A stretch of 64,000 bases of DNA from Melittangium boletus DSM 14713 (GTDB taxonomy: Bacteria > Myxococcota > Myxococcia > Myxococcales > Myxococcaceae). The notes below the pieces were generated by a model. The model was not told where the DNA came from. It searched no databases and saw only the letters and a program-made list of their open reading frames with translations. The position numbers were made by a program, and so were the translations under genes. The stretch is taken from NCBI RefSeq assembly GCF_002305855.1, contig NZ_CP022163.1:7131765-7195764 (forward strand), read 5' to 3'. How positions within the stretch are numbered: position 1 is the stretch's first letter; each line of letters begins with the position of its first letter. Positions 8,609 through 64,000 of the stretch are shown piece after piece.

Positions 8609-8619
8609 TTATATTTGTC

Positions 8620-18200: not shown

Positions 18201-18203
18201 GTC

Positions 18204-42692: not shown

Positions 42693-43943
42693 ATGCCTGA
42701 CTGCGGACTTGACTTCGGAACCAGCAACACGGCCCTCGCCCTGCCGGACGGGACGGTGCTCCCCGTCTCCCCCGGCTACAGTGACCCGCGTCTCTATCGC
42801 TCCGTCATCTTCTTCCCCGAGGACGAGCGCGAAGCGTACACGGGCGCCCCCGCCATCTCCCGCTACCTGGAGGACCCCTCGGGCCGTTTCGTCCAGTCCG
42901 TGAAGTCCTTCCTCCACAGCGCTTCCTTCCGCGCCACGCAGATTCGCGAGCGCACCTGGCTCATCGAGGAGCTGGTGGCGCTGCTGCTGCGCCGGGTGCG
43001 CGAGGCCGCCGCGCCCCACATGGGCGGAGCCCCCGATCGCGTGGTGCTCGGCCGCCCCGCCCTCTTCACCCCGGACCCCGAGGCGGACGCGCTCGCCGAG
43101 CAGCGCCTGCGCCGGGCCGCGGAACTCGCCGGCTTCACCCACATCCAGTTCCTCATCGAGCCCATCGCCGCCGCGCTCTCCTACGAGGCCCAGCTCACCC
43201 GGGACGAGCTGGTGCTGGTGGCCGACTTCGGCGCCGGCACCACGGACCTCACCCTCATGCGGCTGGGGCCCTCGCGTCGGGGCAATCCGGACCGCAAGCC
43301 GGACGTGGTGGGCTCCACCGGCGTGCGCATCGGCGGTGACCGCTTCGACGCGGAGATCATGCGCCACGCGCTGCTGCCCCGCTTTGGCGCGGGCTCCACC
43401 TACCGGGTGCGGGGCCTGAGCGACAAGCGGCTGCCCGTGCCCCAGCACCTGATGGCCAAGCTGCTGTCCTGGCACGAGATGTCCTTCATCCGCAAGAAGG
43501 CCTCCCAGGAGGTGCTGGAGCTGATGCTCACCTCCAGCGACAAGCCCGCCGAGGCCGAGGCCCTGTATGACCTCGTCATGGACAACCTGGGCTACCGGCT
43601 CTTCCGTGCCATCGAGGCGGCCAAGGTGCGGCTGTCCTCCGAGGATGAGACGGTGCTGGAGTTCGACGAGGCGCGCATCCACCTGCGCGAGCGCATCACC
43701 CGCGCCAGCTTCGAGGCCGCCAGCGAGCCGCTCCTCCAGGAGCTGCGCCAGGTGACCGAGGGACTGCTGGAGCGCTGCGCGGGCGCCGGAGAGGTGGACG
43801 CGGTGTTCCTCACGGGCGGCTCCTCGCAGATTCCCGCCGTGCGCCGACTCTACGTCGAGCGCTTCGGCGAGCACCGGGTGCGCACCCGCGATGCCTTCAC
43901 CTCCGTGGCCGAGGGCCTGGGACGGGCCGCCGCCACGCTGTAG
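42693..43943 (+). CDS. Hsp70-family (YegD-like) actin-fold ATPase
   Basis: Phosphate-1/2 and adenosine motifs of the sugar kinase/Hsp70/actin fold (DFGTSNTA, DFGAGTTD, LTGGSSQIP). Only a nucleotide-binding domain, no substrate-binding domain. Confidence 0.75.
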   Translation: MPDCGLDFGTSNTALALPDGTVLPVSPGYSDPRLYRSVIFFPEDEREAYTGAPAISRYLEDPSGRFVQSVKSFLHSASFRATQIRERTWLIEELVALLLRRVREAAAPHMGGAPDRVVLGRPALFTPDPEADALAEQRLRRAAELAGFTHIQFLIEPIAAALSYEAQLTRDELVLVADFGAGTTDLTLMRLGPSRRGNPDRKPDVVGSTGVRIGGDRFDAEIMRHALLPRFGAGSTYRVRGLSDKRLPVPQHLMAKLLSWHEMSFIRKKASQEVLELMLTSSDKPAEAEALYDLVMDNLGYRLFRAIEAAKVRLSSEDETVLEFDEARIHLRERITRASFEAASEPLLQELRQVTEGLLERCAGAGEVDAVFLTGGSSQIPAVRRLYVERFGEHRVRTRDAFTSVAEGLGRAAATL

Positions 43944-44134
43944 CCAGTTCGCCGCGGCCATGCCTCCGACTCGGAGTCGTCCGCGGTGAACGGGTCCTGG
44001 TGGCCTGGGTCCAGCGCGGATCGAGCGGTCGGAGGAACTATTTTCCGGATCACCCATACTGTGGGTTGATCGTGGGTCGAGTAAGATCGAGCATTGGCCC
44101 AGTGGCGTGTCCAACTGGGCATGCTCTGGCTGCC

Positions 44135-44220
44135 GCACGAGTGGCGAAACTGGCAGACGCAGCGGACTTAAAATCCGCTGGCCCGAAGGGGCCGTCCGGG
44201 TTCGATCCCCGGCTCGTGCA
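44135..44220 (+). tRNA. tRNA-Leu (anticodon TAA)
   Basis: Acceptor stem GCACGAG/CTCGTGC plus discriminator A. Anticodon arm GCGGA-CTTAAAA-TCCGC. Long variable arm. T-arm CCGGG-TTCGATC-CCCGG. No encoded CCA. Confidence 0.8.
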
Positions 44221-45008
44221 TTCCTATGTGATTGGAAGCAGTGTGCTCGAACAGTTCCTGGACGCTCTTGAGTGGGACCCCGCGCGCCACGAGGTGGGTG
44301 AAGCATCTCATGGCGGGCCGAAGCCCTCCATTTTGGGAATGGGACAAGCAACTACGGCGGGGGATGGGGACGAGTCAGCTTGCTAGCATCGCATCAATCG
44401 TGCTCAGGAGTTCGTCCAATAAAGGCGTCCATGTTTGAGGCTCGTAGCGCGGCCAGGTGCCGGGCTGTGGCGAGTCCTCAAGTACAGGGCCCATTGCTCG
44501 CATCATGGTGTGCGGCGTGCGAGCACCTCCGGGTTATCGATGCGCCAGCCGTAATTGATGGTCAGGACACTATCTGTCCCGAGTGTGACGACGGAGTGTT
44601 CGCCGAAGCCCTTCAGCCGCGGATTGGAGGACCCGCTGAGGCCTGTGCCGTAGCTGATGCGCTCCGCATGCGCCTTCAGGAAACCCACCAAGGGCTTATA
44701 CCCGGAACGGAGGGCCGGATTGTGGGAGGGCAGGGGGCGGCCGATTATGGCACCATCAGATACGCCAGCACCCGCTTGCTGCCTCTACACTCGGGGCAGG
44801 CGAACGCGTCCAGCGCGAAGCTCCTGCGCAGGCGCTCGGTTCAATCCAGCCGAGGTGTGCGCTTCTTCTTCGACTCCTGCCTCGCCGTTGCATCAGGTGC
44901 CACACTCGCCTCCTCCGCTCTCTATTGGGGGACACGGACCCTCCTCGGTGTGACTCCGGGGAACATGAGACGTCGACCTGCATTTCGGGTCATGATCGGC
45001 GTGCGCAC

Positions 45009-48000
45009 ATGAGGCAAACAGGCGATCACGTCGGTCCATACAGGTTGGTGCGGCCGCTGGGCAGAGGCGGCATGGGCGAGGTCTTCACCGCGCTCCACGA
45101 GCGCATGAACCAGGTGGTTGCCCTCAAGCTCCTGTCTCCGACTGCGGCCGTTGATCCGCAACTCGTGGCTCGATTCGTCCAGGAGGCGCGGGCCCTCGCG
45201 CAATTTCAGCACCCGGGCGTGGTTCGCATCCTCCATTGCGACCGCACGGAGGATGGCACGGCCTTCCTGGCAATGGAGCACCTTGAGGGGCTGTCGCTAC
45301 GCGAGTGGATGCGGCACCAGCAGGGTCCAGCGCCGAGTGAAGCCGCGCTTTCTCTGTGCCAACAGATCGCCGCGGTGATGGCCGACATCCACGCCAAGGG
45401 CATTGTTCACCGGGACCTGAAGCCGGAGAACGTGTTCCTGTGCCCCGATGCCGAGGTCACACCGGGGTACCGCGTCAAACTGCTGGATTTCGGCATCGCG
45501 AAGGTTCCACCGGAGGCGAATGCCTGGGGCGATACGCAGGTGCACACTGCGGCGCCCGTTTTCCTGGGCACGGCTATGTACATGGCTCCTGAGCAGTGCC
45601 GGAACGCGGCGGAGGTGGATGGCGGCGCGGACGTCTACGCCCTGGGGGTACTGCTCTTCGAACTCCTCGCCGGTCGGCCGCCGTTCGTCTCAGACGACGT
45701 AGTCGATTTGATTTCGATGCACATACGCGCTGAGCCGCCGCCGTTGCGCGAACTGGCTCCGGCCGTTCCGGGTGCGCTGTCCTCATTGGTCGCCTCCATG
45801 CTGGCCAAGGAATCGGCGTCCCGTCCGACAATGCGCCGCTGCCAGGATATGCTCGGACGGCGACCCTGGCAGAGCGAACGGGATGAGTGTCCAGTGCCAG
45901 GGCTCGCGTCCTTCACCGAAGCGTATGCCGAGCTGTTCTTCGGTCGTAAGACGGAGATTTCCACCGTCCTGCGTCTTCTGGATGAGGTGCGGTCCGGCGA
46001 ACGCCGATGGGTGCAAGTCGAGGGATCGAGCGGGGTAGGGAAATCGTCGTTGGTACAGGCTGGCGTCCTTCCGCGCTTGAAGGAGAGCTCCTCGCAGCTC
46101 GCTCCCTCCTGGAGGGTCGCGGTCCTTCGCCCGTCGTACGATCCGGTGCATCAACTTGCCGTGGCCGTGTGTGATGCGCTCGCCGGAAGCAACTTCACCT
46201 ACTCGGCTCTGGAGTTGGAGCGTGCGCTGCGCGCCGATGTTCGCGCGCTTTCGGAGATAGTGAGCGCGTACACGCCTCCGCAGGGTCGTTTCCTGCTGGT
46301 GATCGAGCAAATGGAGGAACTCGTCACGCTGGGGGGCGCGGATTGTTTGGGGATTGACGGGTGGGTGGAGACAGCACTCGCCGCGCCTGATGCACCCCTG
46401 CGGTTGCTCACGACGATTCGGAGCGACTTCATCCACCGGCTGGAGCAGATGCCGCGGATGGCGGCGCGGCTCAACCAGGCTGCGCGCTATCTCCTCCGAC
46501 CGATGGAAGAGGCGGCGCTGACGCAGGTCATCGAGGGAATGGCCCAGCGCGTCGGGCTGCGGCTCTCCGAGGGGCTGTCGGTGCGGATGGTTCGTGACGC
46601 AAGGAGCGAAGGAAGCCAGCTCCTGCTGCTTGGCCAATCTCTCCGCGCGTTGTGGTCCCTGCGTAGCGGCGCCCAGCTGACCCATGAGCGATACGAGCAG
46701 ATCGGTGGAGTCGGCGGAGCCCTGGCACAGCAGGCGGAACGGTTGCTCGACGGGCTCGGCTCCCAGGGACGTGAACGCGCGAAGTGGATTCTCCTGGACC
46801 TCGTGCAGGTTGGCCGCGGTGTCCCAGACACGCGGCGGCCCCGCACCCGGCGAGAGGTGCTCAAGGCCGGCGGGGGAGACGCGTTGTCGTTAGAGGTCTT
46901 GATGCGGCTCTCCGGCATGCGGACAGGGACTCGGGACGACGCGGAGGAGGGGCTCCGGCTCATCGTGCTCTCTGCCGGAGATGGGCCCGCGGAGCAGCGT
47001 GTGGACTTGATACACGAGTCGCTCCTGCAGCAGGTTCCGTCACTCGCGGATTGGATCGGGAGCGAGCGCGTCTTGCTTGAGCGGCAGGCGGATCTGGAGA
47101 TCGCCGCGCAATCGTGGGAGCACGCCGGGTGCCCGACGGAAGGGTTGCCTTCCGGCTCGTTGCTCGCGCACTACGGGGATGCGGCCGGTCCATCCTCCCG
47201 ACGCGGTCCTCCCCCATGCCGCGGGGTGAGCGAGCGTGCCTCCTGCTTCCTCACCGCCGCGCGAGGACTTGAGCACCGTCGTGTCCGGCTCAAGCGGGGA
47301 CTGGCGCTCGCGGCGATGGCCGCGGTGCTGGCCATCTCCTTCAGCGCGCTCAGCGCCTACCGCGAGTGGCGGCGAGCTCAAGAAAATCTCCAGCGCATCG
47401 TTCTCGCCACGCACCAGTTCGTCTCCGACGCCGACTGGAAGCTTGGCAGGGTCGCTCATACGCTCGAGGTGCGGCGGGCCATGCTGCACAAGATAGACGA
47501 GAATCTGGCGTCTCTCCCGCACGCGGACCGTCAACTCCCCGAGGTTCGCGAGGCAATCATCGCAACGAAGCATCGACTCGGGGATTTTGCCTTTCAGAAC
47601 GAATCGCTCGCTCGGGCCGAAGGCTTCCTGGATGCCGCAGCCGTGGAGATCCAGAAGGGGCTGGACGCTCGACCGGAGGATGAGGAACTCAAGCTGCTCC
47701 GGGCGCTGAACCACTCCAAGCTCGGGAAGATCGTGCTGGCCCGGGGCAAGCTCGACAAGGCTCGCGGCCATTTCGCTGATGCGCTCGCATTCCTGAATCG
47801 GTCGCCGGACCACGTCGATGATGACTATCGGCGGACCCTGGCGACGAGCTATTCGGAGCAAGGCGAGCTCGACCTGGCGTCCGGAGCTGCCGAAGCTGTC
47901 GAGCGGTACGACCGAGCCGTCGCTCTGTTCGAAGAAAATGCCCGGAGTGGTAATGCGTACGAGCAAGCACTCCTCGCCGATGCGCTGTGCTGGCGCGCGG

Positions 48001-48443
48001 AGGCACTCCATCATGCGGGAAGACTCCCGGAGGCCGCGGCTGATCTCGAGCGTGCGCTCGGTCTTGCTCGCAGGCTGAATGAAGTGGAGGCGGGAAACGA
48101 GTTCATCCGGTGGATCCTCGCTCGAGCTTACCTCGGGTCGGCCTCGGTGGAGGCGGCCCGTGGTGGGCCTCAGGCGGACGACCGATATCGTGCGGCGGAG
48201 GAGCTGGGGCGGGGTCTTGTCCGCGGCGAGCGAACCAACAAGCGCTATGGCCTCGTCCTGACCCAGAGTCTGTTGGAGCACGAGGCGTTGCTGAGTGGTC
48301 GGGGAGCGGCCGCTCAGGCCCGTTCACTGCACGACGAACGCTGTGGGTTGGTCAGCGCATTCGTGGGGATGGATGGCGAGGACCACCGGTTTGACCGGTT
48401 CGTCTGCCCTGGGCCCCCTCTCCCCCAAGAAACCGGACAGTGA
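45009..48443 (+). CDS. Serine/threonine protein kinase fused to a P-loop NTPase and a TPR-like region (STAND-type)
   Basis: Hanks kinase motifs (GRGGMGEV, VALK, HRDLKPEN, DFG, APE). Walker A 'GSSGVGKSSL'. Long helical/TPR-like C-terminus. Confidence 0.85.
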   Translation: MRQTGDHVGPYRLVRPLGRGGMGEVFTALHERMNQVVALKLLSPTAAVDPQLVARFVQEARALAQFQHPGVVRILHCDRTEDGTAFLAMEHLEGLSLREWMRHQQGPAPSEAALSLCQQIAAVMADIHAKGIVHRDLKPENVFLCPDAEVTPGYRVKLLDFGIAKVPPEANAWGDTQVHTAAPVFLGTAMYMAPEQCRNAAEVDGGADVYALGVLLFELLAGRPPFVSDDVVDLISMHIRAEPPPLRELAPAVPGALSSLVASMLAKESASRPTMRRCQDMLGRRPWQSERDECPVPGLASFTEAYAELFFGRKTEISTVLRLLDEVRSGERRWVQVEGSSGVGKSSLVQAGVLPRLKESSSQLAPSWRVAVLRPSYDPVHQLAVAVCDALAGSNFTYSALELERALRADVRALSEIVSAYTPPQGRFLLVIEQMEELVTLGGADCLGIDGWVETALAAPDAPLRLLTTIRSDFIHRLEQMPRMAARLNQAARYLLRPMEEAALTQVIEGMAQRVGLRLSEGLSVRMVRDARSEGSQLLLLGQSLRALWSLRSGAQLTHERYEQIGGVGGALAQQAERLLDGLGSQGRERAKWILLDLVQVGRGVPDTRRPRTRREVLKAGGGDALSLEVLMRLSGMRTGTRDDAEEGLRLIVLSAGDGPAEQRVDLIHESLLQQVPSLADWIGSERVLLERQADLEIAAQSWEHAGCPTEGLPSGSLLAHYGDAAGPSSRRGPPPCRGVSERASCFLTAARGLEHRRVRLKRGLALAAMAAVLAISFSALSAYREWRRAQENLQRIVLATHQFVSDADWKLGRVAHTLEVRRAMLHKIDENLASLPHADRQLPEVREAIIATKHRLGDFAFQNESLARAEGFLDAAAVEIQKGLDARPEDEELKLLRALNHSKLGKIVLARGKLDKARGHFADALAFLNRSPDHVDDDYRRTLATSYSEQGELDLASGAAEAVERYDRAVALFEENARSGNAYEQALLADALCWRAEALHHAGRLPEAAADLERALGLARRLNEVEAGNEFIRWILARAYLGSASVEAARGGPQADDRYRAAEELGRGLVRGERTNKRYGLVLTQSLLEHEALLSGRGAAAQARSLHDERCGLVSAFVGMDGEDHRFDRFVCPGPPLPQETGQ

Positions 48444-48579
48444 TGTGAGTCCATGGGGGGCTTTGTGCGCTGGAACCCTGGGGATACCCCGTACAAGCCC
48501 CTGGCGTGTCGTTGAGCTGGCGCTCGCGAAAAAAAGTCTGACCCCGCGCGCGATCCGTCCGCGAATGGCGTCCTAGGGA

Positions 48580-49515
48580 ATGGAGCCGGAATCCCAACGG
48601 ATGAACACGGACATGATCGACGCCTACCTGATTGCTCGCGAGGAGACACCGCGTGCACGGCGGTTGCCCGCGCGAAGGGCGCTGTGGAAGGGTCGCCTGG
48701 GGATGAGCCGCAATGTGTGGTCGAAGGTTGCTGTAGAGGAGTTGATCCGCCGGGCCCGTGGGGGGGACAAGGCCGCGCTGGAGGAACTCTTCCGGCGCTA
48801 CCAACGCAAGTTGGTGAATTGGGCCTCGCGGAGCGCTCCTCAGCCGCCACCGGGTGGGGCGCGCGCCTCGGACATCGCGCAGGACACGGCGCTGCGCGCG
48901 TTCGACAAGTTCTCCACGTTTAGTGGGACGACGGAGGCCGAGCTGCTGACGTGGCTCAAGCGCATCCTCGCAAACCAAGCCGTGCAGTTGGCCCGGGGAG
49001 CGCGGCGGAAGAAGCGCTCCGCTGAGAGCACCGTGCCGCTGGACAGCGCCGAGGCCGAGGCAACCCCTTCCCGCGGGAAGAGTCCAAGTCAGGTTGTTTT
49101 CGAGCGGGAAGCGTGGCACCAGCTCCTCATCTACCTCTATGAGCTCCCCGAGGAGCAGCAGGAGGCCATCAAGCTCTGTCACCTGGACGAGCTCCCGGTC
49201 GTAGAGGTGGCGCGCCGGATGGGGAAGACGCAAGCATCGGTGGCGGGGTTGCTCCTGCGGGGCCTGCGGTCCTTGAGGGCTCGAATGCAGGAGGGTGCTG
49301 CCGGCACCAGCTCGGACGCGACGCGAGCCGCGCTGCTGACGTACCTGCAGAAGCGCGATGCCGGGGAGAAGGTGGACCCGGAGGCCTTCATTGCAGCCTA
49401 CCCAGACTGCGCCGACGAGTTGAGGGCGAAGTTGGCGTTGCTGGGTCGCATCCGCGATCTGCGTCCGAAGCCGCCCCCGGGGGCGCGGGCGGGTCAACGG
49501 ACGAAAAAGACATGA
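48580..49515 (+). CDS. ECF-type sigma-70 family factor with a C-terminal extension
   Basis: Sigma region 2 ('ELFRRYQRKLVNWA') and region 4 ('LPEEQQEAIKLCHLDELPVVEVARRMGKTQASVAGLLLRGLRSLR') plus about a 90-aa tail. Its stop overlaps the start of the downstream kinase (ATGA). Confidence 0.7.
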   Translation: MEPESQRMNTDMIDAYLIAREETPRARRLPARRALWKGRLGMSRNVWSKVAVEELIRRARGGDKAALEELFRRYQRKLVNWASRSAPQPPPGGARASDIAQDTALRAFDKFSTFSGTTEAELLTWLKRILANQAVQLARGARRKKRSAESTVPLDSAEAEATPSRGKSPSQVVFEREAWHQLLIYLYELPEEQQEAIKLCHLDELPVVEVARRMGKTQASVAGLLLRGLRSLRARMQEGAAGTSSDATRAALLTYLQKRDAGEKVDPEAFIAAYPDCADELRAKLALLGRIRDLRPKPPPGARAGQRTKKT

Positions 49516-50384
49516 TGGGGAGCGCGGCGATGCGTGTCGGAGAATATGTCCTTGCCCGCCGGGTGGCGTCCGGAGCCACGTGCGATGTGTATCAGGGGTA
49601 CCACGCGGTCACCGGGCAAGCCGTGGCGGTGAAGATGCTCTCCCCCAGCCTCTGCTCGGACGAGGAGGTGGGAGGGCGCTTCCTCAATGAAGCGCAGGCG
49701 CTCCAGCAGCTGCGTCATGAGCACTTGGTCCAGGCCGTCACCTCGGGAGTTCTACCTACGGGACAGCCCTTCCTCGTCTTGGAATGGCTTCCCGGAGATC
49801 TGCATCGACTGCTCAAGCGCGCCGGAGGTCAGCTCCCGGTTCAGGCCGCCACCCGTGTCGCCGCGCAGCTCGGCGCCGCGCTCGCGTTCCTGCATGGCTC
49901 CCGGATCTTTCACCGCGACCTGAAGCCTGCCAACGTCTTGGTGGCCACCGATAACCTTGCGATCATCGAGATCAAGCTCGCGGATCTCGGACTGGCCAAG
50001 ATCCCGCGAGAGGAGGGGCATGAAGGGGGGGAGGGGCTCGCTGCCTCTGCCATCTCGACGGCCAAGCGCGCCCTCCTGGGAACTTGGGACTACATGGCCC
50101 CGGAGCAGTGGGTGCAATCCAAGACCGCGGGTGGACCCGCGGATGTGTACGCGCTCGGCATTCTCCTGTTCCAGATGTTGGCGGGCAGGCTGCCATTCGT
50201 CGCCGAGCAGCAGAAGGATCTGATGTATCTGCACCTCCTGGAGAAGCCCCCACTCGAGCTGCTGGAGGGCTTGGCTCCACAGGCTACCCGCGACCTGATT
50301 GCAGGAATGCTGCACAAGAAACCGCTGGAGCGACCGGCGATGCGCGAGGTCGCTCGGCAGCTGGCGGACACACCTCTCATGTAG
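49512..50384 (+). CDS. Stand-alone serine/threonine protein kinase (kinase domain only)
   Basis: VAVK, HRDLKPAN, DLG and MAPE motifs. Translationally coupled to the ECF sigma gene. Confidence 0.85.
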   Translation: MMGSAAMRVGEYVLARRVASGATCDVYQGYHAVTGQAVAVKMLSPSLCSDEEVGGRFLNEAQALQQLRHEHLVQAVTSGVLPTGQPFLVLEWLPGDLHRLLKRAGGQLPVQAATRVAAQLGAALAFLHGSRIFHRDLKPANVLVATDNLAIIEIKLADLGLAKIPREEGHEGGEGLAASAISTAKRALLGTWDYMAPEQWVQSKTAGGPADVYALGILLFQMLAGRLPFVAEQQKDLMYLHLLEKPPLELLEGLAPQATRDLIAGMLHKKPLERPAMREVARQLADTPLM

Positions 50385-50423
50385 CCCGGACTCCTCGGGT
50401 CTCCACACTTCAGCCTGGATGAC

Positions 50424-52154
50424 ATGAACACGATACATGCCGTGCTTTGCCTCGATGTGGATGCTTCTGTCGCGGACGACGACATCCTGCCCCTTCTTCC
50501 TCCGGCACGGAGGGAGCTGAAATTCCTGCGCCTGAGCACCTTCACTACCCAGGGGCCGAAAGGAAAGCGACCAACGTCCAGCCCTGTGGACTGGATCGCG
50601 CTCGCGAACGCCGTCTCTCAGCTGGCGAGCGAGGCGCGCTCACTCAGGGACTCCTCCTCCTCGCCCGTGGAGTTCTTCATCGTGGGCTTGGCTCCGTTGC
50701 CGCTCTTCGTTCTCCTGGGGGCCGAGCTCTCTGCGTGGGCGAAACCTCAGACGTTCCTCAACGTTCGAAAGGATACCACGTGGGATGTCCTGAGGTTGGA
50801 TGACAAGCTCCCGGATGGGGTTCGCTACTTTGACACGGTGAGCGGGCTGAGTGATGTGCCTTCGGAGGCGAATGGCCTGGTGGGGATCTTCATCTCAACT
50901 CAAGCCATGCTGCCGCGCGACGCCGTACGTGATTTCTTGAGGGCGCAGGGAAATGGGATCGCCGGCGTGGTCGAATGCCGGAACAGCACCAGCACGCCCG
51001 TGGACGCCGCTCATGCACCCGCGATCGCGGAGGAGTTGGTGCGGGTGCTGGCCGCCACCCGGCGTGCGTATCCCAATCATTCGGGCCTGGCGCTCTTCGT
51101 CTCGGGACCGGCGTCGCTCGCGTTCATGGCGGGTCGGGCCTTCAACCCAAGGGCGATGGGAAGCGCGTGGGTGGCCAGCTATGCACCGCCCGGATACGAG
51201 CTGGCGTTCACCTTGCCATGGAAGCCCGCTTTGCGGGTGGTGGAGTTGCGCCGTGGACCGAAGCAGGAGCAGGCGCGTCAGAAGGTCCTGCTGGCGGTGT
51301 TGGCAGGCGCCCGGAAATTGAAGGACACCCTCCAACTCGGGGATCTCCCGCCGTTCCTCGCGCCGTCCGCGGGGGAAATGCTCCTGACACGTCTCCACCA
51401 GTTGACGATCGCCGATGAACCGGAGGGGGATGAGACGCGCCTGAGCGTCGGGCAGCGGCGGCTGACTTTCGGGCGCGGGCTGCTCGAAGGCATGCGCCAG
51501 CTGGACGAGCGCTACCGGGAGCCCTTGGCCCTGCAGTATCTGCTGCATGAGCTCTTCCACTTCGATCAGGAGCTGACCTCCCAGAACTACCGTGGCGTCG
51601 GACGTGGGGGCTTCGCCTTGGAGGAGGTGGATTACTGGGCGGACATCCTGGCTATTGGCACGCTGACGAGCTGGCGGATGAGAGAGGGTGGCCCACAACT
51701 CCAGCGCGAGCCTGGAAGGGTTCTCGCCGAAGAGCTCGACGTGAGCCTTCGGGGCATCGAGACCTTCGATCGCATGGAGCACGGCGAGCGCATTGGGGAT
51801 TTGTTGGAGCGGCGTTTGCGGCGCTACCTCATCTGGGCGCTCCATCATGCACGTGCCAAGACGCTTCGCCACGATACGGGCATCTGGAAGGTGCTTGGCG
51901 AGCGGTTGATTGTCGAACTGGCCCCTCTCCGCGGAAGGTTCGACACCGTCCACGACAAGGTCATCATCGAGGCGCTTCCCGATACCGAGCTGTTTGTCGT
52001 CTGGGGGAGACGCCTGATGAGACTGCACCGACGACCCGGGTTCGAGCCTGCGGCCCTCGTGGACATCGTGCGGACGTTCGATCAGAGCTTGCTTCTCAAG
52101 ATGATGGAATACGTGGCGGAGAAGGAGCACGCGGTGCTGACCCCGTGGGTTTGA
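50424..52154 (+). CDS. SAVED-domain protein (two CARF-like subdomains at the N-terminus) with an uncharacterised C-terminal helical domain carrying HExxH; putative CBASS effector
   Basis: Two Rossmann-like 'hhhhGhAPhPhhhhLG' and 'hhhFhSGPxSLAFxxGRxxNP' segments about 150 aa apart (aa ~95-115 and ~245-270), the pattern of SAVED/CARF sensors. C-terminal region has 'LLHELFHFDQE...EEVDY' (HExxH plus a downstream Glu). No HMM search was possible. Confidence 0.5.
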   Translation: MNTIHAVLCLDVDASVADDDILPLLPPARRELKFLRLSTFTTQGPKGKRPTSSPVDWIALANAVSQLASEARSLRDSSSSPVEFFIVGLAPLPLFVLLGAELSAWAKPQTFLNVRKDTTWDVLRLDDKLPDGVRYFDTVSGLSDVPSEANGLVGIFISTQAMLPRDAVRDFLRAQGNGIAGVVECRNSTSTPVDAAHAPAIAEELVRVLAATRRAYPNHSGLALFVSGPASLAFMAGRAFNPRAMGSAWVASYAPPGYELAFTLPWKPALRVVELRRGPKQEQARQKVLLAVLAGARKLKDTLQLGDLPPFLAPSAGEMLLTRLHQLTIADEPEGDETRLSVGQRRLTFGRGLLEGMRQLDERYREPLALQYLLHELFHFDQELTSQNYRGVGRGGFALEEVDYWADILAIGTLTSWRMREGGPQLQREPGRVLAEELDVSLRGIETFDRMEHGERIGDLLERRLRRYLIWALHHARAKTLRHDTGIWKVLGERLIVELAPLRGRFDTVHDKVIIEALPDTELFVVWGRRLMRLHRRPGFEPAALVDIVRTFDQSLLLKMMEYVAEKEHAVLTPWV

Positions 52155-52170
52155 CGGAGAGGCGAGGATC

Positions 52171-53133
52171 GTGCGGAATGGTGAAACCCACATGCGGGAT
52201 CTGACCGATTTACTGAACAGGATACTTCGCAGCGTCGAGCCCTCGGCGGAGGAGAAGGAGGGCGCGCAGCGCAGCCATCACTACCTCCGAGAGATCTTGC
52301 TGACCGGAAAGATGGAGTCCATCATCCGGTACCATTTCCTGAGCGGTAGCTACCCACGGGCAACCGCCATTCGTCCGCTTGATGATGTAGATATCATTTT
52401 CGTCGTGGATCCCAGCCATTGGAAGACTCCGAACTTCAGCGATCTCCCAGCTCCAAGCGCTGTGCTCCAGACCTTCGAACGGGCATTGGCGCGGCGGTAC
52501 CTGGAGACAAAGCTTCGGGTTCAACGTCGATCCATTCGGCTCCAGATGCAGCACCTGAATGTGGACGTGGTCCCTGCGGTCAGCGCGGACGGAGAAGGCA
52601 GCGAGCGGCTCCTCATCCCAGACGCGGAAAATGATACGTGGATCCGCTCCGCGCCCAAAATACACGGTGCGTTGGCGACGGAGATCAACCAGAGGCACGG
52701 AGAATTATTCAAGCCATTGGTGAAGCTGCTCAAGACCTGGAATCTGGGCGTGCCCGAGGCGCTACGCTTCAAGTCGTTTTGTGTCGAGACGATTGCCACG
52801 AGGCTATTCGCGTCAGCCAAGCTGAACTCCCTTCAGACCGGCCTCGTTCAGTTCTTCGATTTCGTCTGCTACATCGGTGGTGACCCATGTGAATTCCCAT
52901 GGAATGATGATCGCGGTATGTCACTCCGCCTCGGGAATTGCGTGGTGCCAGATACGGCCGAGGGCATGAACGTGGCGGCCAGCGTCACGAGGCAAGGTCG
53001 CGAGTGTTTCATGCGCCGGGCCGCGACCAGCCGGGACTGGATCCTGCAAGCGGAACGGGCCAGAACGTGGAATAGCGCCGAGAGCAAGATCGAGAAGGCG
53101 TTTGGAAGCCATCTGCGAGAGCTGGATTGGTGA
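52171..53133 (+). CDS. CD-NTase-like (SMODS/Pol-beta superfamily) nucleotidyltransferase, paralogue 1
   Basis: 'GSYPRATAIRPLDDVDIIFVVD' (GS, then DxD) and a third acidic residue in 'LNVDVVPAV'. About 320 aa with a helical C-terminal half. Candidate starts at GTG 52171 or ATG 52192. Confidence 0.6.
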   Translation: MRNGETHMRDLTDLLNRILRSVEPSAEEKEGAQRSHHYLREILLTGKMESIIRYHFLSGSYPRATAIRPLDDVDIIFVVDPSHWKTPNFSDLPAPSAVLQTFERALARRYLETKLRVQRRSIRLQMQHLNVDVVPAVSADGEGSERLLIPDAENDTWIRSAPKIHGALATEINQRHGELFKPLVKLLKTWNLGVPEALRFKSFCVETIATRLFASAKLNSLQTGLVQFFDFVCYIGGDPCEFPWNDDRGMSLRLGNCVVPDTAEGMNVAASVTRQGRECFMRRAATSRDWILQAERARTWNSAESKIEKAFGSHLRELDW

Positions 53134-53198
53134 CCCACGGGGCACTCTCATGCGCGCGATCTTCGCGCCAACGGCATCTACTCTCTCAGGAGGACACC

Positions 53199-54158
53199 AT
53201 GCAGGTTCGACAAGCAGTTCATGACTTCATTTCCGCACTCGAACTCACCACCGCCGAGAGGACGACCGCCAGCGACCAGCACAAGTTCCTACGCGATGGA
53301 CTCGCCAGCCGGCTGGAGATCGAGCCCGACCATTACCCATTCCTCACCGGCTCCTACGCGCGGAGCACGGCCATCCGTCCGCTCAAGGACATCGATCTGT
53401 TTTGCGTGTTGAAGCGCACGCCCTCGCTCGCCCCGCATATTAGCAGCCCGATGGACGCACTGAAGACGGTGCGACGCGCGCTCGAGGATCAGTACCCGGG
53501 CAAGACCGCCGATCCCCAGAACCGCTCGGTGAACATCTCATTCTCCACCACGGGAATCGCCTACGATGTCGTCCCCGCGTTCCTCGACGAGGGCGACAAC
53601 GAGATCTTCTGGATCCCGGACCTTCAAGCGAAGACCTGGATCCGTTCCAACCCACGTATCCACGAACGCATGTCAGTGGACGCGAACGAGGCCGCGGGCA
53701 AGGAACTCAAGCCCCTCACCAAGGCGGTGAAGCACTGGAACCGGCGACAGATGGACGGGAAGCGACTGAGGTCGTTCCACATCGAGGTGATGATCTGGGA
53801 CGTGCTCGTGGCGAAGCCGGAGAACCGGCTCGATGGCCTCATCCAGATCTTCGAGGGTCTGGCTTCTCGCGTGTACCTCGACACGTTGGATCCGGCGGCG
53901 CTGGGGCCACCCATCAACCAGGGAATGAGCGACGCGGAGAAAACCGCCGCGAAGACACAGTTGCAACAAGCGGCCGCGACGCTGAAGGAGGCGAGGGAAC
54001 TCGCGCAAACTGGCTATACGGAGCGGGCCCATTACCTCCTGTACGGGATTTTTGGGGATCCCTATCCCGAGAAGGGAAAGGAGGGGCGCTCGGTCGTCAC
54101 CGGCGTTTCGGCATCCCTGCCGTCCGCTCCGGATGGTCACGGCTCCAGGTTCGGGTAG
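53199..54158 (+). CDS. CD-NTase-like nucleotidyltransferase, paralogue 2 (C-terminus ends in Gly)
   Basis: 'GSYARSTAIRPLKDIDLFCVL' and 'YDVVPAF'. Strong Shine-Dalgarno (AGGAGGA) before the ATG at 53199. C-terminal tail '...SAPDGHGSRFG'. Confidence 0.6.
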   Translation: MQVRQAVHDFISALELTTAERTTASDQHKFLRDGLASRLEIEPDHYPFLTGSYARSTAIRPLKDIDLFCVLKRTPSLAPHISSPMDALKTVRRALEDQYPGKTADPQNRSVNISFSTTGIAYDVVPAFLDEGDNEIFWIPDLQAKTWIRSNPRIHERMSVDANEAAGKELKPLTKAVKHWNRRQMDGKRLRSFHIEVMIWDVLVAKPENRLDGLIQIFEGLASRVYLDTLDPAALGPPINQGMSDAEKTAAKTQLQQAAATLKEARELAQTGYTERAHYLLYGIFGDPYPEKGKEGRSVVTGVSASLPSAPDGHGSRFG

Positions 54159-54164
54159 ACATCC

Positions 54165-55934
54165 GTGCCATTCCCTGACAGTGACCGACGGCGGTGGTTG
54201 GAGGAACTGCGTGTCCTCCACCAACGACACCCCAACATCCTGCGAATTGAGGAGCGTCCGGTGACCTTCGCCGAAGGCACGGTCGATACTGCGGTTGGAT
54301 CCCGGCGATACCGGCTGGTATGGCCGCCGGAGTTTCCCTTGCGCCCGCCCGTTACCTGGGAGTTGTCGGCCGATGGCGCAGACGTCATCGACCATCGCGC
54401 CCATGGGTACACGTTCCGGGATCTGAGTCTGTGCTTGTTCGCGCATGACCCTCGACAGGGATGGCGACCAGAGTACACGGCGGGAGAGGCACTCGATCGG
54501 CTCGTGGCGTATCTGGAGCAGGAGGCTCACGGCGAGTTCCCTCGAATCGAGGACATCCCCCTGACGACGGACTTCATCAGGGTCTCCGTGCCGCTGAGCA
54601 TCGCGGCGGCGCTGCGTCAGGGGGGCGGATGGGGAATATTGACGGTGCGTGGTCGGAAGGACGGGAGACTCCTACGCGTGATGAGCGTGGATGGAACCTC
54701 GCCCTCGCCGATCATCACCAGGCCTCTTGAGGCCGACCTGGAAGCGCCGTGGGTCGCCGCGCTGGGGTTGGACCATCCGCGGCAGGGCTTGTGGTGCAGG
54801 ATCAATAAGACTGTGGAGCAGGTCCCTTCGTCGCGGCACAGGCTCGAAGGTTGGATTAGACAGCAGCTCCCGAACGAGCATGCACGGCAGTTGTTCATGG
54901 CGCAGGCGTTGATCCTGCTGGTGTTGAACGACGGGTTGAGATTCGTCCTCATAAAGGCCGGAACCACTCCGGACACGAACCCCGAAGAGAGGTTGATCTA
55001 CGTAGAGCCCTTCGAAGAAAACCTCGAGGAGCGCATCTTCCGGCGCGTTGACGATCGACTCGGGGGCGTCGGGGGGCTCCAGCGCGCGCAGGTCGCGATC
55101 GTCGGGGTAGGCAGCCTTGGCAGCAGTGTCGCGGTCGTGCTTGCGAAGGCCGGCGTGAGTAAGTTCGTGCTCCTCGACCCGGAATTGCTCGACCCAGAGA
55201 ACGTGGCGCGGCACGTGGGTGGCGTGGACGAGATCTGTTTGCCCAAGGTGGAGGTTGTGAGCAGGGCGATCCATCGGATCAATCCCGCTGCGGAAGTGGT
55301 CCAGGTGCAAGCTGCGCTCTCGTTGGATCCGGTTGGCTGGGGAAAGGATCCGACGCAGCACCTCATCGAGGTGACACGTCATCCGCTGGGCATCATCGTC
55401 TGTGCCACCGCCACGACCGAGGCGGAGAGCGTGGTCAACCATCTGTGTGTGATCCACGCATGCCCCGGGATCTTCACCGCCGTATTAGGACGCGCGGAGC
55501 ACGGGCGGGTATTCAGGGTCCTGCCGGGGGTAACACCTTGCTATCAGTGTGTGCTGAACGCTCAATACGCGGAGCCCGGTCGATTTCCGCGCTTCGACCG
55601 CGTTGACATGGGCGTCCCTGCCTATCAGCAACAAGGACTCCCCGGGCTCGGGATGGACGTTGAGCAAGTCGCGCTGATCACCGCGCGGATGACGTTGCAG
55701 ACTCTCGGAGAGCGGAGCGAGGGTGAGCTCGATTACCCGAAGGCTCACGGGGATCACCTGATCTGGTCCAATCACGGAGGATGGGCAGTCGATGGTCCGC
55801 TTCAGACGAGGGTGGAACTCATCCCACGAGATCGCGCATGCCCCGTATGTGGGATTGGGAATGAACTCCCGCTATCCTTGGAAGAGGAGAAAGAATTGGC
55901 TGCCCTGCAAGTGGACCGTTTGAAGAGGTCTTGA
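54165..55934 (+). CDS. Cap2-like E1/E2 fusion protein (ThiF/MoeB-type E1 adenylation domain with an N-terminal E2-like region)
   Basis: E1 Rossmann fold 'VAIVGVGSLGSSVAVVLAKAGVSKFVLLDPELLDPENVARH'. Two CxxC pairs (CYQC, CPVC). N-terminal about 270 aa with 'HPNI' and a downstream Cys ('LSLCLF'), possibly E2-like. Confidence 0.6.
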   Translation: MPFPDSDRRRWLEELRVLHQRHPNILRIEERPVTFAEGTVDTAVGSRRYRLVWPPEFPLRPPVTWELSADGADVIDHRAHGYTFRDLSLCLFAHDPRQGWRPEYTAGEALDRLVAYLEQEAHGEFPRIEDIPLTTDFIRVSVPLSIAAALRQGGGWGILTVRGRKDGRLLRVMSVDGTSPSPIITRPLEADLEAPWVAALGLDHPRQGLWCRINKTVEQVPSSRHRLEGWIRQQLPNEHARQLFMAQALILLVLNDGLRFVLIKAGTTPDTNPEERLIYVEPFEENLEERIFRRVDDRLGGVGGLQRAQVAIVGVGSLGSSVAVVLAKAGVSKFVLLDPELLDPENVARHVGGVDEICLPKVEVVSRAIHRINPAAEVVQVQAALSLDPVGWGKDPTQHLIEVTRHPLGIIVCATATTEAESVVNHLCVIHACPGIFTAVLGRAEHGRVFRVLPGVTPCYQCVLNAQYAEPGRFPRFDRVDMGVPAYQQQGLPGLGMDVEQVALITARMTLQTLGERSEGELDYPKAHGDHLIWSNHGGWAVDGPLQTRVELIPRDRACPVCGIGNELPLSLEEEKELAALQVDRLKRS

Positions 55935-56187
55935 GCAGTCAGAATGGACGGGAGAGCGCGGATCATTTTCTTTGGTCGGCGCATAGATAGATGGCGCCCC
56001 ACCCCTCGAATCCCCCAAGGCGCTGACGGCCGAGGCAGGCTGCGGCCGGGTGACACACGCAGGCTGGTCGCTGGGCCGGTGGAGAGGCCGTGCAGCCGCT
56101 TCAAAAAAGCACTGGCTTGCGATGGCTTTCACCCGCTTGGGGCGTCTTCCCTTTTGAGTGCGAAAGGCGGATGAGACGGAGGTGCTA

Positions 56188-57123
56188 ATGAGGATCGCGG
56201 AGTTCTTGGAAGAGCTGTTCCTGGACCTGATTCAGGATGTCGAACCCACCCCCAGCCAGAAAGAGGATGCCCAGCGGACACACCACACCCTGCGGTACCG
56301 GTTGGACTCCGGGAACATCGGGCTTCGCATCATCGACTCGTATCTGAGCGGCAGCTACGTGCGGCATACAGCGATTGCTCCGCTCGATGACGTCGACATT
56401 ATCTTCCTCATCGATCCGTCCAAGTGGCCGCGCGGCTTTCTTGCGGATAAGCCCTCCCCCAGCGTAGTCCTCACCACGTTCGAGCGCGCCATTCGCTACC
56501 GGTATCCCGACAGCGTAGTCCAGAGGCAGCGCCGCTCGGTGGGGCTGGCGCTCCACAAGATGCATATCGATGTGGTGCCCGCCATTCTCGAGTCCTCCGA
56601 GAGCGGCCGAATCTATGTCTTGGACTCAGAGACGGAAGAGTGGATTCTTTCCGCTCCGAGGGTTCATGCTGAGCACACGACACGCGTCAATAAACAGCGG
56701 GAGGGACGCTTTGTCCCCCTGGTCAAGGTGCTGAAGTTCTGGAACAAGCGCCTCCCCTCCACCGCGTGTTTGAAGTCCTTCACCATTGAGACGACTGCGG
56801 TGCGGCTCTTCTCCGAGGTTGGTTTCAGCTCGTTTACGGAAGGTGCGCTCCTGTTCTTCGACTTTCTGGCCCAGTTTGCGGGAGAAGCCCGGCAGAACTG
56901 GAGGAGTGACTTCGGTATCAAGCTGAGCCGCTGGGCGTGGACTCCCACGGTCCTCGATGTCGCTGGCACGGGAAGCAACCTCGTGGCGGGGCTGGAGGAA
57001 CAGCGCCGCGTCAAATTCCTTCAGCACGCGGTGTCCAGCCGCAACCGCCTATTCGAAGCGCTCGATGCGCGGACTCCGGAGCGTTGCGAGAACCGGTTCC
57101 AAGCAGCCTTCCGCATCTATTAG
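56188..57123 (+). CDS. CD-NTase-like nucleotidyltransferase, paralogue 3 (closest to paralogue 1)
   Basis: 'GSYVRHTAIAPLDDVDIIFLID' and 'IDVVPAI'. Colinear similarity to paralogue 1 through the helical domain ('LVKVLKFWN...LKSFTIETTAVRLF'). The ORF track start is 56158; the ATG at 56188 (MRIAEF) is preferred. Confidence 0.6.
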   Translation: MRIAEFLEELFLDLIQDVEPTPSQKEDAQRTHHTLRYRLDSGNIGLRIIDSYLSGSYVRHTAIAPLDDVDIIFLIDPSKWPRGFLADKPSPSVVLTTFERAIRYRYPDSVVQRQRRSVGLALHKMHIDVVPAILESSESGRIYVLDSETEEWILSAPRVHAEHTTRVNKQREGRFVPLVKVLKFWNKRLPSTACLKSFTIETTAVRLFSEVGFSSFTEGALLFFDFLAQFAGEARQNWRSDFGIKLSRWAWTPTVLDVAGTGSNLVAGLEEQRRVKFLQHAVSSRNRLFEALDARTPERCENRFQAAFRIY

Positions 57124-57663
57124 CTCGCCAGCTCACGGCCGAAACGCATAGATGGGATGAGATGCCGTGATGTCCAGTCATGAGGTCGTTAAACGCCTGC
57201 GCCTCCCGCAGGGAGGGGGAGCGGGGGATGAACGAAGGTGAAGGGCTTGTCGCTGTTGGTGATGGCGCAGAGGGCGTGCATGAGTTCGCGCATGCACCAT
57301 CTGCCTGTTCGAAGGCGTGGTGGAGTGGGGGAGCCGCGGGTATTTCTTCCCCACCTTTTCCCCACGGGGGACACGCCAGAGCCTGCCAGGACAGGCCATC
57401 TTCAGAGGGAAAAGCCAGAGTTTGCCCCTGCCCAGCCCTGATTCGTAATCAGGGGGCGCTGGCTTGTGCGCGGGGGCGAGCCGAGGAGCAGTGGCCTCTG
57501 TGCCATGGGGCCTCTCCATGTGCCGCGTATGTCCCCCTCCAGCGCGGATTCAGGGGGGACCAGGGGGGACGACACAGCACGAGACGGGATGATGTCCCTA
57601 GTAAAATCAAGGCGATAGCGGGTAACTGCGCGTCCTGCTTGGGGTTTTCTACCGCCCTGCCCA

Positions 57664-57693
57664 GGGTTCGAGCCCCGGCTCGTGCATTTCCCA
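57664..57693 (+). repeat. Direct repeat of the 3' end of tRNA-Leu (about 30 bp; putative att site of an integrated island)
   Basis: GGGTTCGAGCCCCGGCTCGTGCATTTCC matches the T-arm and acceptor 3' end of the tRNA-Leu at 44190-44222 (GGGTTCGATCCCCGGCTCGTGCATTCC) with one or two mismatches. Confidence 0.5.
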
Positions 57694-57875
57694 ACCTGCC
57701 ATCGACGCGGGGGTGAAGAGGGGCCGGTCCCCCTCGACAGGGGCCATTCCGGTCACCATCGGACAGTGCCACCCGTTTTCTACCCAGGGAGGCTCGTTCC
57801 AGGCTTCGTTGCCCGAATGCGTGCTTGCGTCTGTAGAGGAAGTCGGTTACTTACCCGCCCACGTCGGAGGAAGTC

Positions 57876-57949
57876 GCGCGATTAGCTCAGCTGGATAGAG
57901 CGTTGGCCTCCGAAGCCAAAGGCCGCAGGTTCGACTCCTGCATCGCGCA
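57876..57949 (+). tRNA. tRNA-Arg (anticodon CCG)
   Basis: Acceptor GCGCGAT/ATCGCGC plus A. D-arm TAGCTCAGCTGGATAGAGC. Anticodon arm TTGGC-CTCCGAA-GCCAA. T-arm GCAGG-TTCGACT-CCTGC. Confidence 0.8.
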
Positions 57950-57958
57950 CTGAGGCAA

Positions 57959-58010
57959 GGGCCCGGAATCGTTGGGGAGCTCCCCCACTGGTTCCGGGCC
58001 CTTCGCTTTT
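57959..58010 (+). terminator. Rho-independent terminator after tRNA-Arg
   Basis: 10-bp perfect stem GGGCCCGGAA / TTCCGGGCCC around an internally palindromic loop, followed by TTCGCTTTT. Confidence 0.5.
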
Positions 58011-58287
58011 CCCGGCTCCACCTTGCCGCAAGGATGCGGCAAGGCCGTTCCCGGCCATGCCTCAGCGTGGGGCCTGCCCCACCGCGACCGTTCAGGCTGC
58101 CTCCTCCTCCTGGACGCTGGGCGGGCTAGGCAACTGGGGGCGTAGCCCGAACTGGAGGCTGTCCACCTCCGCGCGGAGGTAGTCCGGGGTTGGGGCCGCT
58201 GTATCGTCCGACGGCTCGCGCCTCGTTGAATGCGCGGCTGACGAATCCCCGCAGGGGGGGTTGAGCGTCTGGGGGACAGTTGGCGCG

Positions 58288-58617
58288 CTATCGTGCTCCG
58301 ATAAACCACACGATGTCACCCAGGTCAGGGCGGCGCCCGAGTGCGGCCCACTCCGCGTCCATTCGCGCGAGTTGCTCCTCCGCTGTTCCCTCCCAAGGCG
58401 CAAAAGCCCCGCCCGGCAAGAGGTGGACGGCCCGGAGCGCCCCGCTGGTCAGCAAGGGACGTAGGGCGCTCAGTGTTTCCAGGCGCACCTCGTCCTCTGT
58501 TGCGCCGGGCCGCCATTCGCGGATGTCCGCCGCCAGCCACCACAGGCCCAAGTCGCTGCTCATCGCGTCTCGGGCCCAGCCTCGCTGGATGTCCTCCACC
58601 GTCTGCTGATCGCTCAT
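58288..58617 (-). CDS. Hypothetical small cytoplasmic protein, translationally coupled to the upstream secreted protein (possible immunity-like partner)
   Basis: 109-aa ORF with no signal peptide and an ATGA overlap with the preceding gene. No recognisable family. Confidence 0.35.
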   Translation of the reverse strand: MSDQQTVEDIQRGWARDAMSSDLGLWWLAADIREWRPGATEDEVRLETLSALRPLLTSGALRAVHLLPGGAFAPWEGTAEEQLARMDAEWAALGRRPDLGDIVWFIGAR

Positions 58618-59141: not shown

Positions 59142-59353
59142 GCTACTCGGGGTCTACCTGGTGAGGAACGCCTCCAAGGCAGCGAGCCGGACGCGGATGG
59201 CGTTATCGTGAAACCCCGCGACCGGATGGACCGGTTGGACAGCCCGATCCCAACCCCCTGTCAGCCCCTTGCAAGTGCCGTGTTGGGACTATGGCGGCGA
59301 GTTCTTCGCAGCCTCCCCCAGGGATGCAGGGGAGGCTCCTCTCCAGCGCTGGT

Positions 59354-63835: not shown

Positions 63836-64000
63836 GACTTCCTCGTCCTCCGGGCCTCTCGCCGCTGCTTTCCGCGATTCTGGCTTTCTTCATGGCTCGG
63901 GCTCTCCTGCCCGCCCTGCCGCAAGCTCGCCGACAGGTCGCCAATGGTGGGGTTGCCGAAGAGGCTCGCCGCCGACAGCTCCACCTTCAGCGCCGCCCTC
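63832..64000 (-). CDS. 3' end (partial) of an upstream NRPS/PKS gene ending in a carrier-protein domain, translationally coupled to the downstream PKS
   Basis: The reverse-strand frame reads '...LKVELSAASLFGNPTIGDLSASL...', a PCP/ACP helix-3/4 signature. Its TGA stop overlaps the ATG of the PKS at 63833-63835. The gene is truncated by the window edge. Confidence 0.5.
   Translation of the reverse strand, partial: RAALKVELSAASLFGNPTIGDLSASLRQGGQESPSHEESQNRGKQRREARRTRKS

Follow-up and report, generated by a model that had tools for sequence, protein, structure and literature searches.

How did a block of signalling and defence genes come to lie between an intact transfer RNA gene and a short copy of the end of that same gene, when no integrase gene stands beside either? 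The locus that raises this question is tRNA-Leu(TAA) of the myxobacterium Melittangium boletus DSM 14713, which we analyzed within a 64,000-nt stretch of its chromosome (NZ_CP022163.1, positions 7,131,765 to 7,195,764; hereafter the window, in whose own numbering all positions are given unless another locus is named). An earlier, sequence-only reading of the window had interpreted the block as an old, immobilised island. Our analysis indicates that 44223-57688 is very probably a genomic island that arose by site-specific integration into the 3' end of tRNA-Leu(TAA), from the T-loop to the terminus, and whose integrase has since been lost. The island is of an already well-known kind, of which it is a textbook case, and is valuable mainly as a clearly bounded example, with exact attachment (att) cores and two independent empty-site comparators.

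A 3' fragment of tRNA-Leu(TAA) at the far end of the block

Two tRNA genes were found by ARAGORN in the 64-kb window, tRNA-Leu(TAA), which is intact at 44135-44220 as the sequence-only reading had it, and tRNA-Arg(CCG) (Table 1). The tRNA-Leu gene is identical in sequence to that of loci L065, L072, L074, L081 and L204, which are described below. The copy of its 3' end, first described as about 30 bp long at 57664-57693, proved to be a real direct repeat of 25 nt whose identity ends at 57688; the two copies (44198-44222 and 57664-57688) lie 13,466 nt apart and agree at 24 of 25 positions, the sole mismatch being a T-to-G change in the T-loop of the right-hand copy. This core spans 3 nt of the T-stem, the T-loop, the 3' T-stem, the 3' acceptor strand, the discriminator base and 2 nt beyond. 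A pattern search allowing up to three mismatches gave these two matches in the window and none in 100 dinucleotide-preserving shuffles.

The possibility that the copy belongs to a degraded tRNA gene had been named earlier as the finding that would speak against an att repeat. The Rfam covariance model gave no tRNA match at 57664-57688 even at E<=10, while tRNA-Arg, 190 nt away, scored 72.8 bits; the copy is therefore an isolated 3' fragment and not a decayed tRNA gene. The DNA immediately to its left is island sequence common to the window and Archangium.

Relatives without the island

Metagenome contigs were scanned for the 23-nt core in a search for empty sites. tRNA-Leu(TAA) is followed directly by tRNA-Arg(CCG) in L074 (194 nt apart), L072 (146 nt) and L079 (842 nt), and the two genes are also adjacent in L065. 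The contig L074, which has no island, represents a very close relative whose ffh gene is 97.6% identical to that of the window in nucleotides and 99.3% in protein, with 5.5% of third positions different. In L074 the tRNA 3' end runs straight into the homologue of window 57689-57958; its 194-nt spacer is 80.4% identical to window 57689-57875 (control stretches, ~61%), and the window with 44223-57688 deleted in silico matches L074 at 88.8% identity over 350 nt. The native flank motif TCCCAACCYGCC stands directly after the core in occupied and empty alleles alike. The relation between L074 and the window thus reads as the classical attB/attL/attR arrangement (PMC4383910).

A second pair of empty and occupied alleles was found in Archangium. 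Homologues of the SAVED-domain protein of the island led to two Archangium gephyra genomes, CP043495 (L081) and strain PVMSAZ (L080), both occupied, and the Archangium-like contig L203/L065 is empty. The latter aligns to L081 1723-3811 and then, after a jump of 13.5 kb, to 17342-19132, the two alignments overlapping in the core only; it resumes at the core copy and the gene of an FAD oxidase, and its right flank is 96% identical to that of L080. From the comparisons of L074 with the window and of L203/L065 with L081 and L080, the island is polymorphic for presence and absence at the same 25-nt core in both lineages. The empty site that the sequence-only reading had suggested looking for in relatives hence exists twice, each time with the flanks joining at the core.

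A further genome labelled Melittangium boletus (CP185340; L204) carries no island. Its tRNA-Leu and tRNA-Arg genes (L204 9094-9703) are convergent and 447 nt apart, an orientation that implies an inversion between them; its ffh is 93.6% identical to that of the window in nucleotides, so that it is probably a different species.

The island also differs from its surroundings in composition, as had been noticed for the flanking PKS (polyketide synthase) and cytochrome genes. Its GC content is 63.6%, against 68.4% in 12570-44134 and 68.8% in 57701-64000, and GC at third codon positions is 0.71-0.82 in the island genes against 0.85-0.94 in the PKS, cytochrome and Hsp70-like genes. The ffh side of the window (1-12569) is also low in GC (0.609).

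Table 1 Features of the island and its surroundings in the window (NRPS, non-ribosomal peptide synthetase; ECF, extracytoplasmic function; TPR, tetratricopeptide repeat; CBASS, cyclic oligonucleotide-based antiphage signalling system; HMM, hidden Markov model; ORF, open reading frame; aa, amino acids).
Feature	Position	Strand	Evidence or remark
tRNA-Leu(TAA), intact integration target; would be the regenerated gene on the attL side	44135-44220	+	ARAGORN
attL core, last 23 nt of tRNA-Leu plus 2 nt	44198-44222	+	Repeat finder and pattern search
M. boletus-specific left end, no intact gene; holds the integrase relic and a 62-aa ORF	44231-44768	.	Locus comparison
Probable tyrosine integrase relic, box II region, ~21 codons, THLVARGVPLKSVQELFEHTA	44237-44299	-	tblastn, Pfam, family HMM
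Conserved island body (cassette and right arm), common to A. gephyra	44769-57700	+	blastn
Ser/Thr kinase-nSTAND1 NTPase-TPR protein	45006-48443	+	Pfam Pkinase 2.6e-44, nSTAND1 3.4e-82, TPR_12; PADLOC candidate 'C3a189 kinase' 3.3e-150
ECF-type sigma factor	48580-49515	+	Pfam Sigma70_r2, Sigma70_r4_2, Sigma70_ECF
Ser/Thr protein kinase, start overlaps sigma gene by 4 nt	49512-50384	+	Pfam Pkinase 3e-44
Putative CBASS effector, N-terminal SAVED, C-terminal HExxH (M48-like) peptidase	50424-52154	+	Pfam SAVED 2.2e-18; PADLOC 'SAVED_peptidaseM48' 3.2e-190
CD-NTase/SMODS cyclase 1	52171-53133	+	Pfam SMODS 3.5e-28; PADLOC cyclase 8.5e-41
CD-NTase/SMODS cyclase 2	53127-54158	+	Pfam SMODS 1.1e-20; PADLOC cyclase 8.2e-69
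Cap2-like E2/E1 protein	54165-55934	+	Pfam ThiF 1.3e-27; PADLOC E1-E2 7.1e-25
CD-NTase/SMODS cyclase 3, absent from A. gephyra PVMSAZ	56158-57123	+	Pfam SMODS 3e-25
Non-coding right arm, kept with Archangium up to the att core	57124-57663	.	88-91% identity to L081, L080
attR core, displaced 3' fragment of tRNA-Leu, one T-loop mismatch	57664-57688	+	Repeat finder and pattern search
Native tRNA-Leu/tRNA-Arg spacer, right flank of attB	57689-57875	+	80.4% identical to L074 spacer
tRNA-Arg(CCG), native neighbour of tRNA-Leu	57876-57950	+	ARAGORN; Rfam 72.8 bits
PKS/NRPS genes	12799-38841	-	Inside the 31.5-kb block
Multihaem cytochrome	39178-42045		Inside the 31.5-kb block, with a small ORF also present
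Hsp70-like gene	42693-43943		Inside the 31.5-kb block

A probable integrase relic next to the tRNA gene

No intact integrase was found among the eight cargo genes and the right-end ORFs with Pfam and PADLOC, nor in the six-frame translation of the window with an integrase-family HMM. A short probable relic was found instead at 44237-44299. It converges on tRNA-Leu, whose 3' end is 16 nt away, and lies inside a stop-to-stop frame at 44171-44374. When the integrase of the provirus contig L066 was used as a tblastn query, the best match of the whole window was 44243-44299 on the minus strand, 16-22 nt from the tRNA (E 0.005; next 1.8). In Pfam, Phage_integrase was the sole family matched by the relic ORF, at model positions 136-162 of 172 (E 0.016), and an HMM of 17 related prophage integrases scored it at E 3.4e-4, with the next at 0.67 among 1270 six-frame fragments; PHROGs gave no match for it. 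The position of the relic can be compared with that of intact genes: in the provirus contig L066/L086 a 286-aa tyrosine integrase gene converges on tRNA-Leu(TAA) and stops 17-20 nt short of its 3' end, and intact integrases of this family generally abut tRNA-like 3' ends (~20 nt, same orientation), two of them at tRNA-Leu(TAA). We regard 44237-44299 as the probable relic of the island's integrase, a remnant that no longer has the catalytic tyrosine region or anything upstream.

The earlier statement that the island has no recognisable integrase accordingly holds for an intact gene; two short relics are present, this probable one and that of a different integrase at 44036-44122. Searching the tRNA-adjacent stretch for integrase or phage fragments by BLAST, as had been advised, returned the relic in tblastn and no match in blastn of 44221-44924 against phage records. 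The relic lies in a left end (44231-44768) without a homologue in any fetched locus save a 32-nt overlap with L080; L081 has at this position an unrelated stretch that is transposase-like by eye. The ORF at 44503-44691 (62 aa, minus strand), which had been proposed as a gene remnant, does exist, but Pfam recognised no family in it, none of the loci had a homologue, and its only match was to a PHROG whose function is not known (E 0.033); for want of detectable homology it was rejected as integrase evidence.

Other candidates were also rejected. A split integrase with attP inside the int gene, as in phage Mx8, does not fit, because the frame through the attR core stops after 12 codons and no integrase C-terminus was detected to the left of attR. 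The first 29 codons of a different tyrosine integrase of 388 aa lie at 44036-44122 on the minus strand, 13 nt upstream of tRNA-Leu (62% identical), and the gene is intact at the same position in Archangium (L081 2350-3516; empty-site L065 2183-3349). An integrase facing the 5' side of a tRNA gene is unusual. We rejected it as the island's own, since it stands 5' of the tRNA, beyond the repeats, and is also present in the empty-site contig L203/L065. Next to the Archangium gene is an HTH_17 gene, and the spacer contains GTGGGTACC repeats; a scan of viral contigs for its element returned the same contig and nothing else.

A search for an active element with the conserved right arm gave no match among viral contigs, and a scan of viral contigs with the anticodon-arm pattern for a second att site gave 97 unrelated tRNA matches and was uninformative. 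No intact integrase was found beside the other copies of the cassette (L080-L085, L201 and L202).

The same island in Archangium gephyra

In L081, tRNA-Leu is followed by the same eight genes, a copy of the 25-nt core with two T-loop changes, the FAD-oxidase gene and tRNA-Arg. In L080 the third cyclase is missing and the left end is rearranged, and a perfect core copy is followed by the FAD-oxidase gene and tRNA-Arg. The missing cyclase corresponds to a clean 1.5-kb deletion (L080 15513-15536, equivalent to window 55940-57495), and a peptidase S8 gene replaces tRNA-Leu at the left end of the cassette. By blastn, the window is 93.7% identical to L080 over 11.2 kb from 44769, and to L081 92-94% over 44814-57410 (12.6 kb) and 88% over 57478-57700; homology to both ends at window 57700, just beyond the core. 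It includes the right arm, whose ORFs matched no Pfam family. Identity is 91-94% to L083/L084, a metagenome-assembled genome (MAG), and 84.5% to L082, a Corallococcus.

Third-codon-position identity between the island genes of the window and those of A. gephyra is 85-94%. The corresponding values are 81% for ffh (compared between the window and Archangium sp. Cb G35; ~91% overall) and 79% for the Hsp70-like gene, and these two proteins are more conserved than the island proteins, yet lower in third-position identity. The island genes are moreover mosaic, the kinase-STAND protein being closer to L080 (94.5% in amino acids, against 89.4% to L081) and the Cap2-like protein closer to L081 (93.5%, against 88.5% to L080). 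Because island genes resemble each other more across the two genera than core genes do, and the island is absent from L074, the island, or the locus carrying it, moved between lineages after the split of Melittangium and Archangium. The word 'old' in the earlier label therefore needs qualifying, and applies only insofar as none of the copies seen has kept its integrase. The island is thereby a case of transfer between genera of the Archangiaceae, a group whose mobile elements and defence systems have been little studied.

A defence cassette with three cyclases

Eight co-oriented genes with short or overlapping junctions lie between the repeats; the start of the first, the kinase-STAND-TPR gene at 45006, was inferred from the homologous gene call in L081. 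Pfam and PADLOC agree with the cargo read earlier from the translations, namely a kinase-ATPase-TPR Ser/Thr kinase, an ECF sigma/kinase pair and a CBASS-like module. The SAVED effector has an HELFH motif at residue 375; it matches a Melittangium boletus protein at 100% identity, as does the Ffh of the window. The three cyclases are mutually 32-40% identical (cyclase 3 is 40% identical to cyclase 1 and 35% to cyclase 2), and a pattern search found the GS...DxD motif in 3/3. The E2 part of the Cap2-like protein is weak (Prok-E2_A 0.0023), and a Cap3/JAB deubiquitinase was matched neither in any island ORF with Pfam nor in the gene calls of L080-L084. All eight genes carry kinase, sigma, SAVED, SMODS or ThiF domains in Pfam, with no phage structural or lysis, relaxase or type IV secretion, replication or transfer gene among them. 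The CBASS part appears to be type II-like, with three cyclases, a Cap2-like E2/E1 protein and a SAVED-metallopeptidase effector, and the whole block is, judged by its domains, most likely a regulated anti-phage module.

The cassette is kept as a unit in at least four genomes with differing neighbours (L080, L081, L082 and L083/84). In the MAG it follows PLD and SNF2-helicase genes, and in the Corallococcus it is truncated by an insertion sequence element; no tRNA was found within reach of the cassette in either. Simpler relatives consist of sigma factor, kinase, SAVED protein, cyclase and E1 (L202), or of SAVED protein, cyclase and E1 only (L201 and L085).

Origin of the island and alternatives

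The two endpoints of tRNA-gene islands are the regenerated target and the displaced fragment (PMC4383910). For the island in the window, we suppose a circular element whose attP carried a copy of the last ~25 nt of the tRNA, as is standard for tRNA-gene islands, and a tyrosine integrase that would have recombined this attP with the chromosomal tRNA gene. The element's copy would then have regenerated the tRNA (attL), and the displaced native 3' fragment would have come to lie at the far end (attR), before the original tRNA-Leu/tRNA-Arg spacer. The integrase gene would once have been directly downstream of the tRNA, convergent with it, and lost save for the short box-II relic, a loss that would leave the island unable to excise by itself.

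Several points weigh against this scenario or parts of it. The relic lacks the last ~60 codons that are expected between box II and the tRNA, and it sits in a 540-nt stretch seen in M. boletus only, so it could come from a different element that once occupied the same site. No intact integrase stands beside any copy seen (M. boletus, the two A. gephyra strains, the MAG and the Corallococcus), and the integrase family is hence assigned solely from the relic of ~21 aa (E 3e-4 to 2e-2). The cassette is off the tRNA in L082 and L083/84, and so can apparently move by routes beyond this att site. Finally, the anti-phage function and its regulation by the sigma factor and kinases are read from homology only.

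The best of the alternatives, which we nevertheless consider improbable, is that the island arrived by homologous recombination, an allelic replacement with tRNA-Leu and tRNA-Arg as arms that brought in the att repeat ready-made. Integration would then have happened in another lineage and the integrase might never have been in M. boletus, in agreement with the lack of an intact one in any copy; the tRNA genes are identical across genera, and the mosaic of L080 and L081 affinities among the island genes is what recombination predicts. The right flank after the core, however, is of the M. boletus/L074 type and not of the Archangium type with its FAD-oxidase gene, so that a crossover would need to fall in the 25-nt core or in the short conserved stretch that follows. 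M. boletus alone also has the leftmost 540 nt with the integrase relic, and the same kind of integrative element would still be needed originally.

Less probable still is a stepwise history of a hotspot, in which a prophage or island with an L066-type integrase integrated and was almost completely deleted, and the defence cassette was inserted separately between the remnants. In three genomes the cassette and the 540-nt non-coding right arm run unbroken as far as the att core and share one junction there, which is explained most simply if the cassette was already cargo at integration. This has to be set against a left boundary of the cassette that varies by genome (window 44769, 44814, 44914 and 44983), cassettes with neither tRNA nor att in L082 and L083/84, a relic-bearing 540 nt that is not common to Archangium, and the other lineage-specific DNA that flanks the same tRNA pair on both sides. 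That the repeat is instead the remnant of a second, degraded tRNA-Leu from a tandem duplication, with ordinary chromosome between, is hardly credible even though T-arms are conserved, tRNA genes are often in tandem and the anticodon arm has a separate 20/22 copy at 12568-12589, because the copy has no tRNA-model match at E<=10, its tRNA identity ends abruptly at the same base in three genomes, and the empty-site alignments, with alleles lacking both the copy and the intervening 13.4 kb, refute it. Integration at the tRNA 3' end followed by loss of the integrase is therefore the reading that we keep.

Relation to known elements

The island shares with islands at tRNA and tmRNA genes of the tyrosine integrase type (Islander, PMC4383910) the intact tRNA at one end and the displaced 3' fragment as a direct repeat at the other, as well as a precise island-free allele, atypical composition and accessory defence cargo. 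Unlike them, it has no intact integrase but a relic of ~21 codons, and would fail an integrase-anchored island finder; it also lacks the excision, replication, transfer and phage structural genes of such elements. A second comparison is with the myxobacterial IMG/VR proviruses L066/L086 and L094 with the 286-aa integrase, which use the same target tRNA-Leu(TAA) and the same 23-nt core and have the integrase immediately downstream of the tRNA and convergent, the window relic being most similar to their family. Those proviruses are ~27-77 kb long with an intact integrase, whereas the window element is 13.5 kb with no phage genes and unrelated cargo. Phage Mx8 integrates at tRNA-Asp of Myxococcus xanthus with attP inside the int gene, and in its lysogens the intX reading frame runs into the tRNA. 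It resembles the window element as a myxobacterial element at a tRNA 3' end, and the frame of the window relic also runs into the tRNA; the two differ in that the window frame through the attR core ends after 12 codons and no integrase C-terminus was detected to the left of attR, so that a split integrase of the Mx8 kind is not supported.

Control of CBASS by an ECF sigma factor is known from M. xanthus, where the sigma factor has a membrane anti-sigma partner (PMC11506125). That CBASS-CRISPR island, regulated by DdvS/DdvA, likewise has an ECF sigma gene among the CBASS genes and a type II CBASS with E1/E2 and a SAVED effector (PMC11506125). In the window, the partner of the sigma factor is a cytoplasmic Ser/Thr kinase instead of a transmembrane anti-sigma factor, three cyclases are in one operon, neither CRISPR-Cas nor a Cap3/JAB gene was seen, and the effector is a SAVED-HExxH peptidase where the M. 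xanthus island has a CHAT-SAVED protein; regulation in the window is deduced from homology.

A bolder reading joins two proposals. One is that the eight genes form an undescribed regulated defence machine, in which the ECF sigma factor, switched by the adjacent kinase and perhaps by the kinase-STAND-TPR sensor, may control a CBASS operon whose three divergent but seemingly active cyclases feed a single SAVED-metallopeptidase effector; the other is that the island is still mobilisable in trans, since an integrase-less island that has kept near-perfect att cores could be moved by resident prophage integrases of the L066 family. We hold the two together to be rather unlikely, if conceivable. The island shows tRNA-Leu(TAA) to be in active use as an integration site among these bacteria; intact integrases of one family occupy it in other genomes, which is of use for making integration vectors for genetically difficult myxobacteria. 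The cassette with its sigma factor, kinases, three cyclases, Cap2-like protein and SAVED-peptidase, and the hotspot locus itself, might repay further study.

Surroundings of the locus

The PKS and cytochrome genes to the left of the island had been taken as its flanks, but they are not native there. The ffh gene (10830-12476, minus strand) adjoins tRNA-Leu directly in L074, L075, L078, L067, L068 and L204; in the window, the two are separated by 31.5 kb (12570-44134), and that block is absent from L074, L075, L078 and L204. A biosynthetic cluster seems to have entered there, 5' of the same tRNA gene. The Hsp70-like gene was tried as a synteny anchor and rejected: none of its 64 orthologue loci had tRNA-Leu or any other shared neighbour, so the gene itself is displaced and says nothing against the empty sites. 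In the ffh upstream region, 12568-12589 matches the tRNA-Leu anticodon arm at 20 of 22 positions (AGACGCAGCGGATTTGAAATCC), a copy not expected by chance; L074 has a more degenerate copy at the same place, and the copy therefore predates the 31.5-kb segment.

The region immediately upstream of ffh in Archangium sp. Cb G35 (L206/L207 1-9806) is taken up by a different NRPS cluster, which encodes an MbtH protein, CmlA-like hydroxylases, an ABC transporter and an NRPS of 8518 aa; there is no tRNA-Leu gene within 10 kb. Biosynthetic clusters may have entered repeatedly between ffh and tRNA-Leu, and the whole ffh/tRNA-Leu/tRNA-Arg stretch suggests a hotspot that exchanges whole biosynthetic clusters and defence genes.

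On the 3' side of tRNA-Arg, L074 and L065 agree with each other but not with the window, whose sequence at 57959-59141 is also unlike that of either A. gephyra strain; L204 alone shares it, up to 57999. The two ORFs there (58288-58617 and 58614-59141, both on the minus strand) matched no family and are followed by a PKS gene at 59354-63835, and tRNA-Arg may be a second variable site. Directly after tRNA-Arg, at 57957-58003, there is a 21-nt inverted repeat, 86% complementary with a 5-nt loop, which is probably its terminator.

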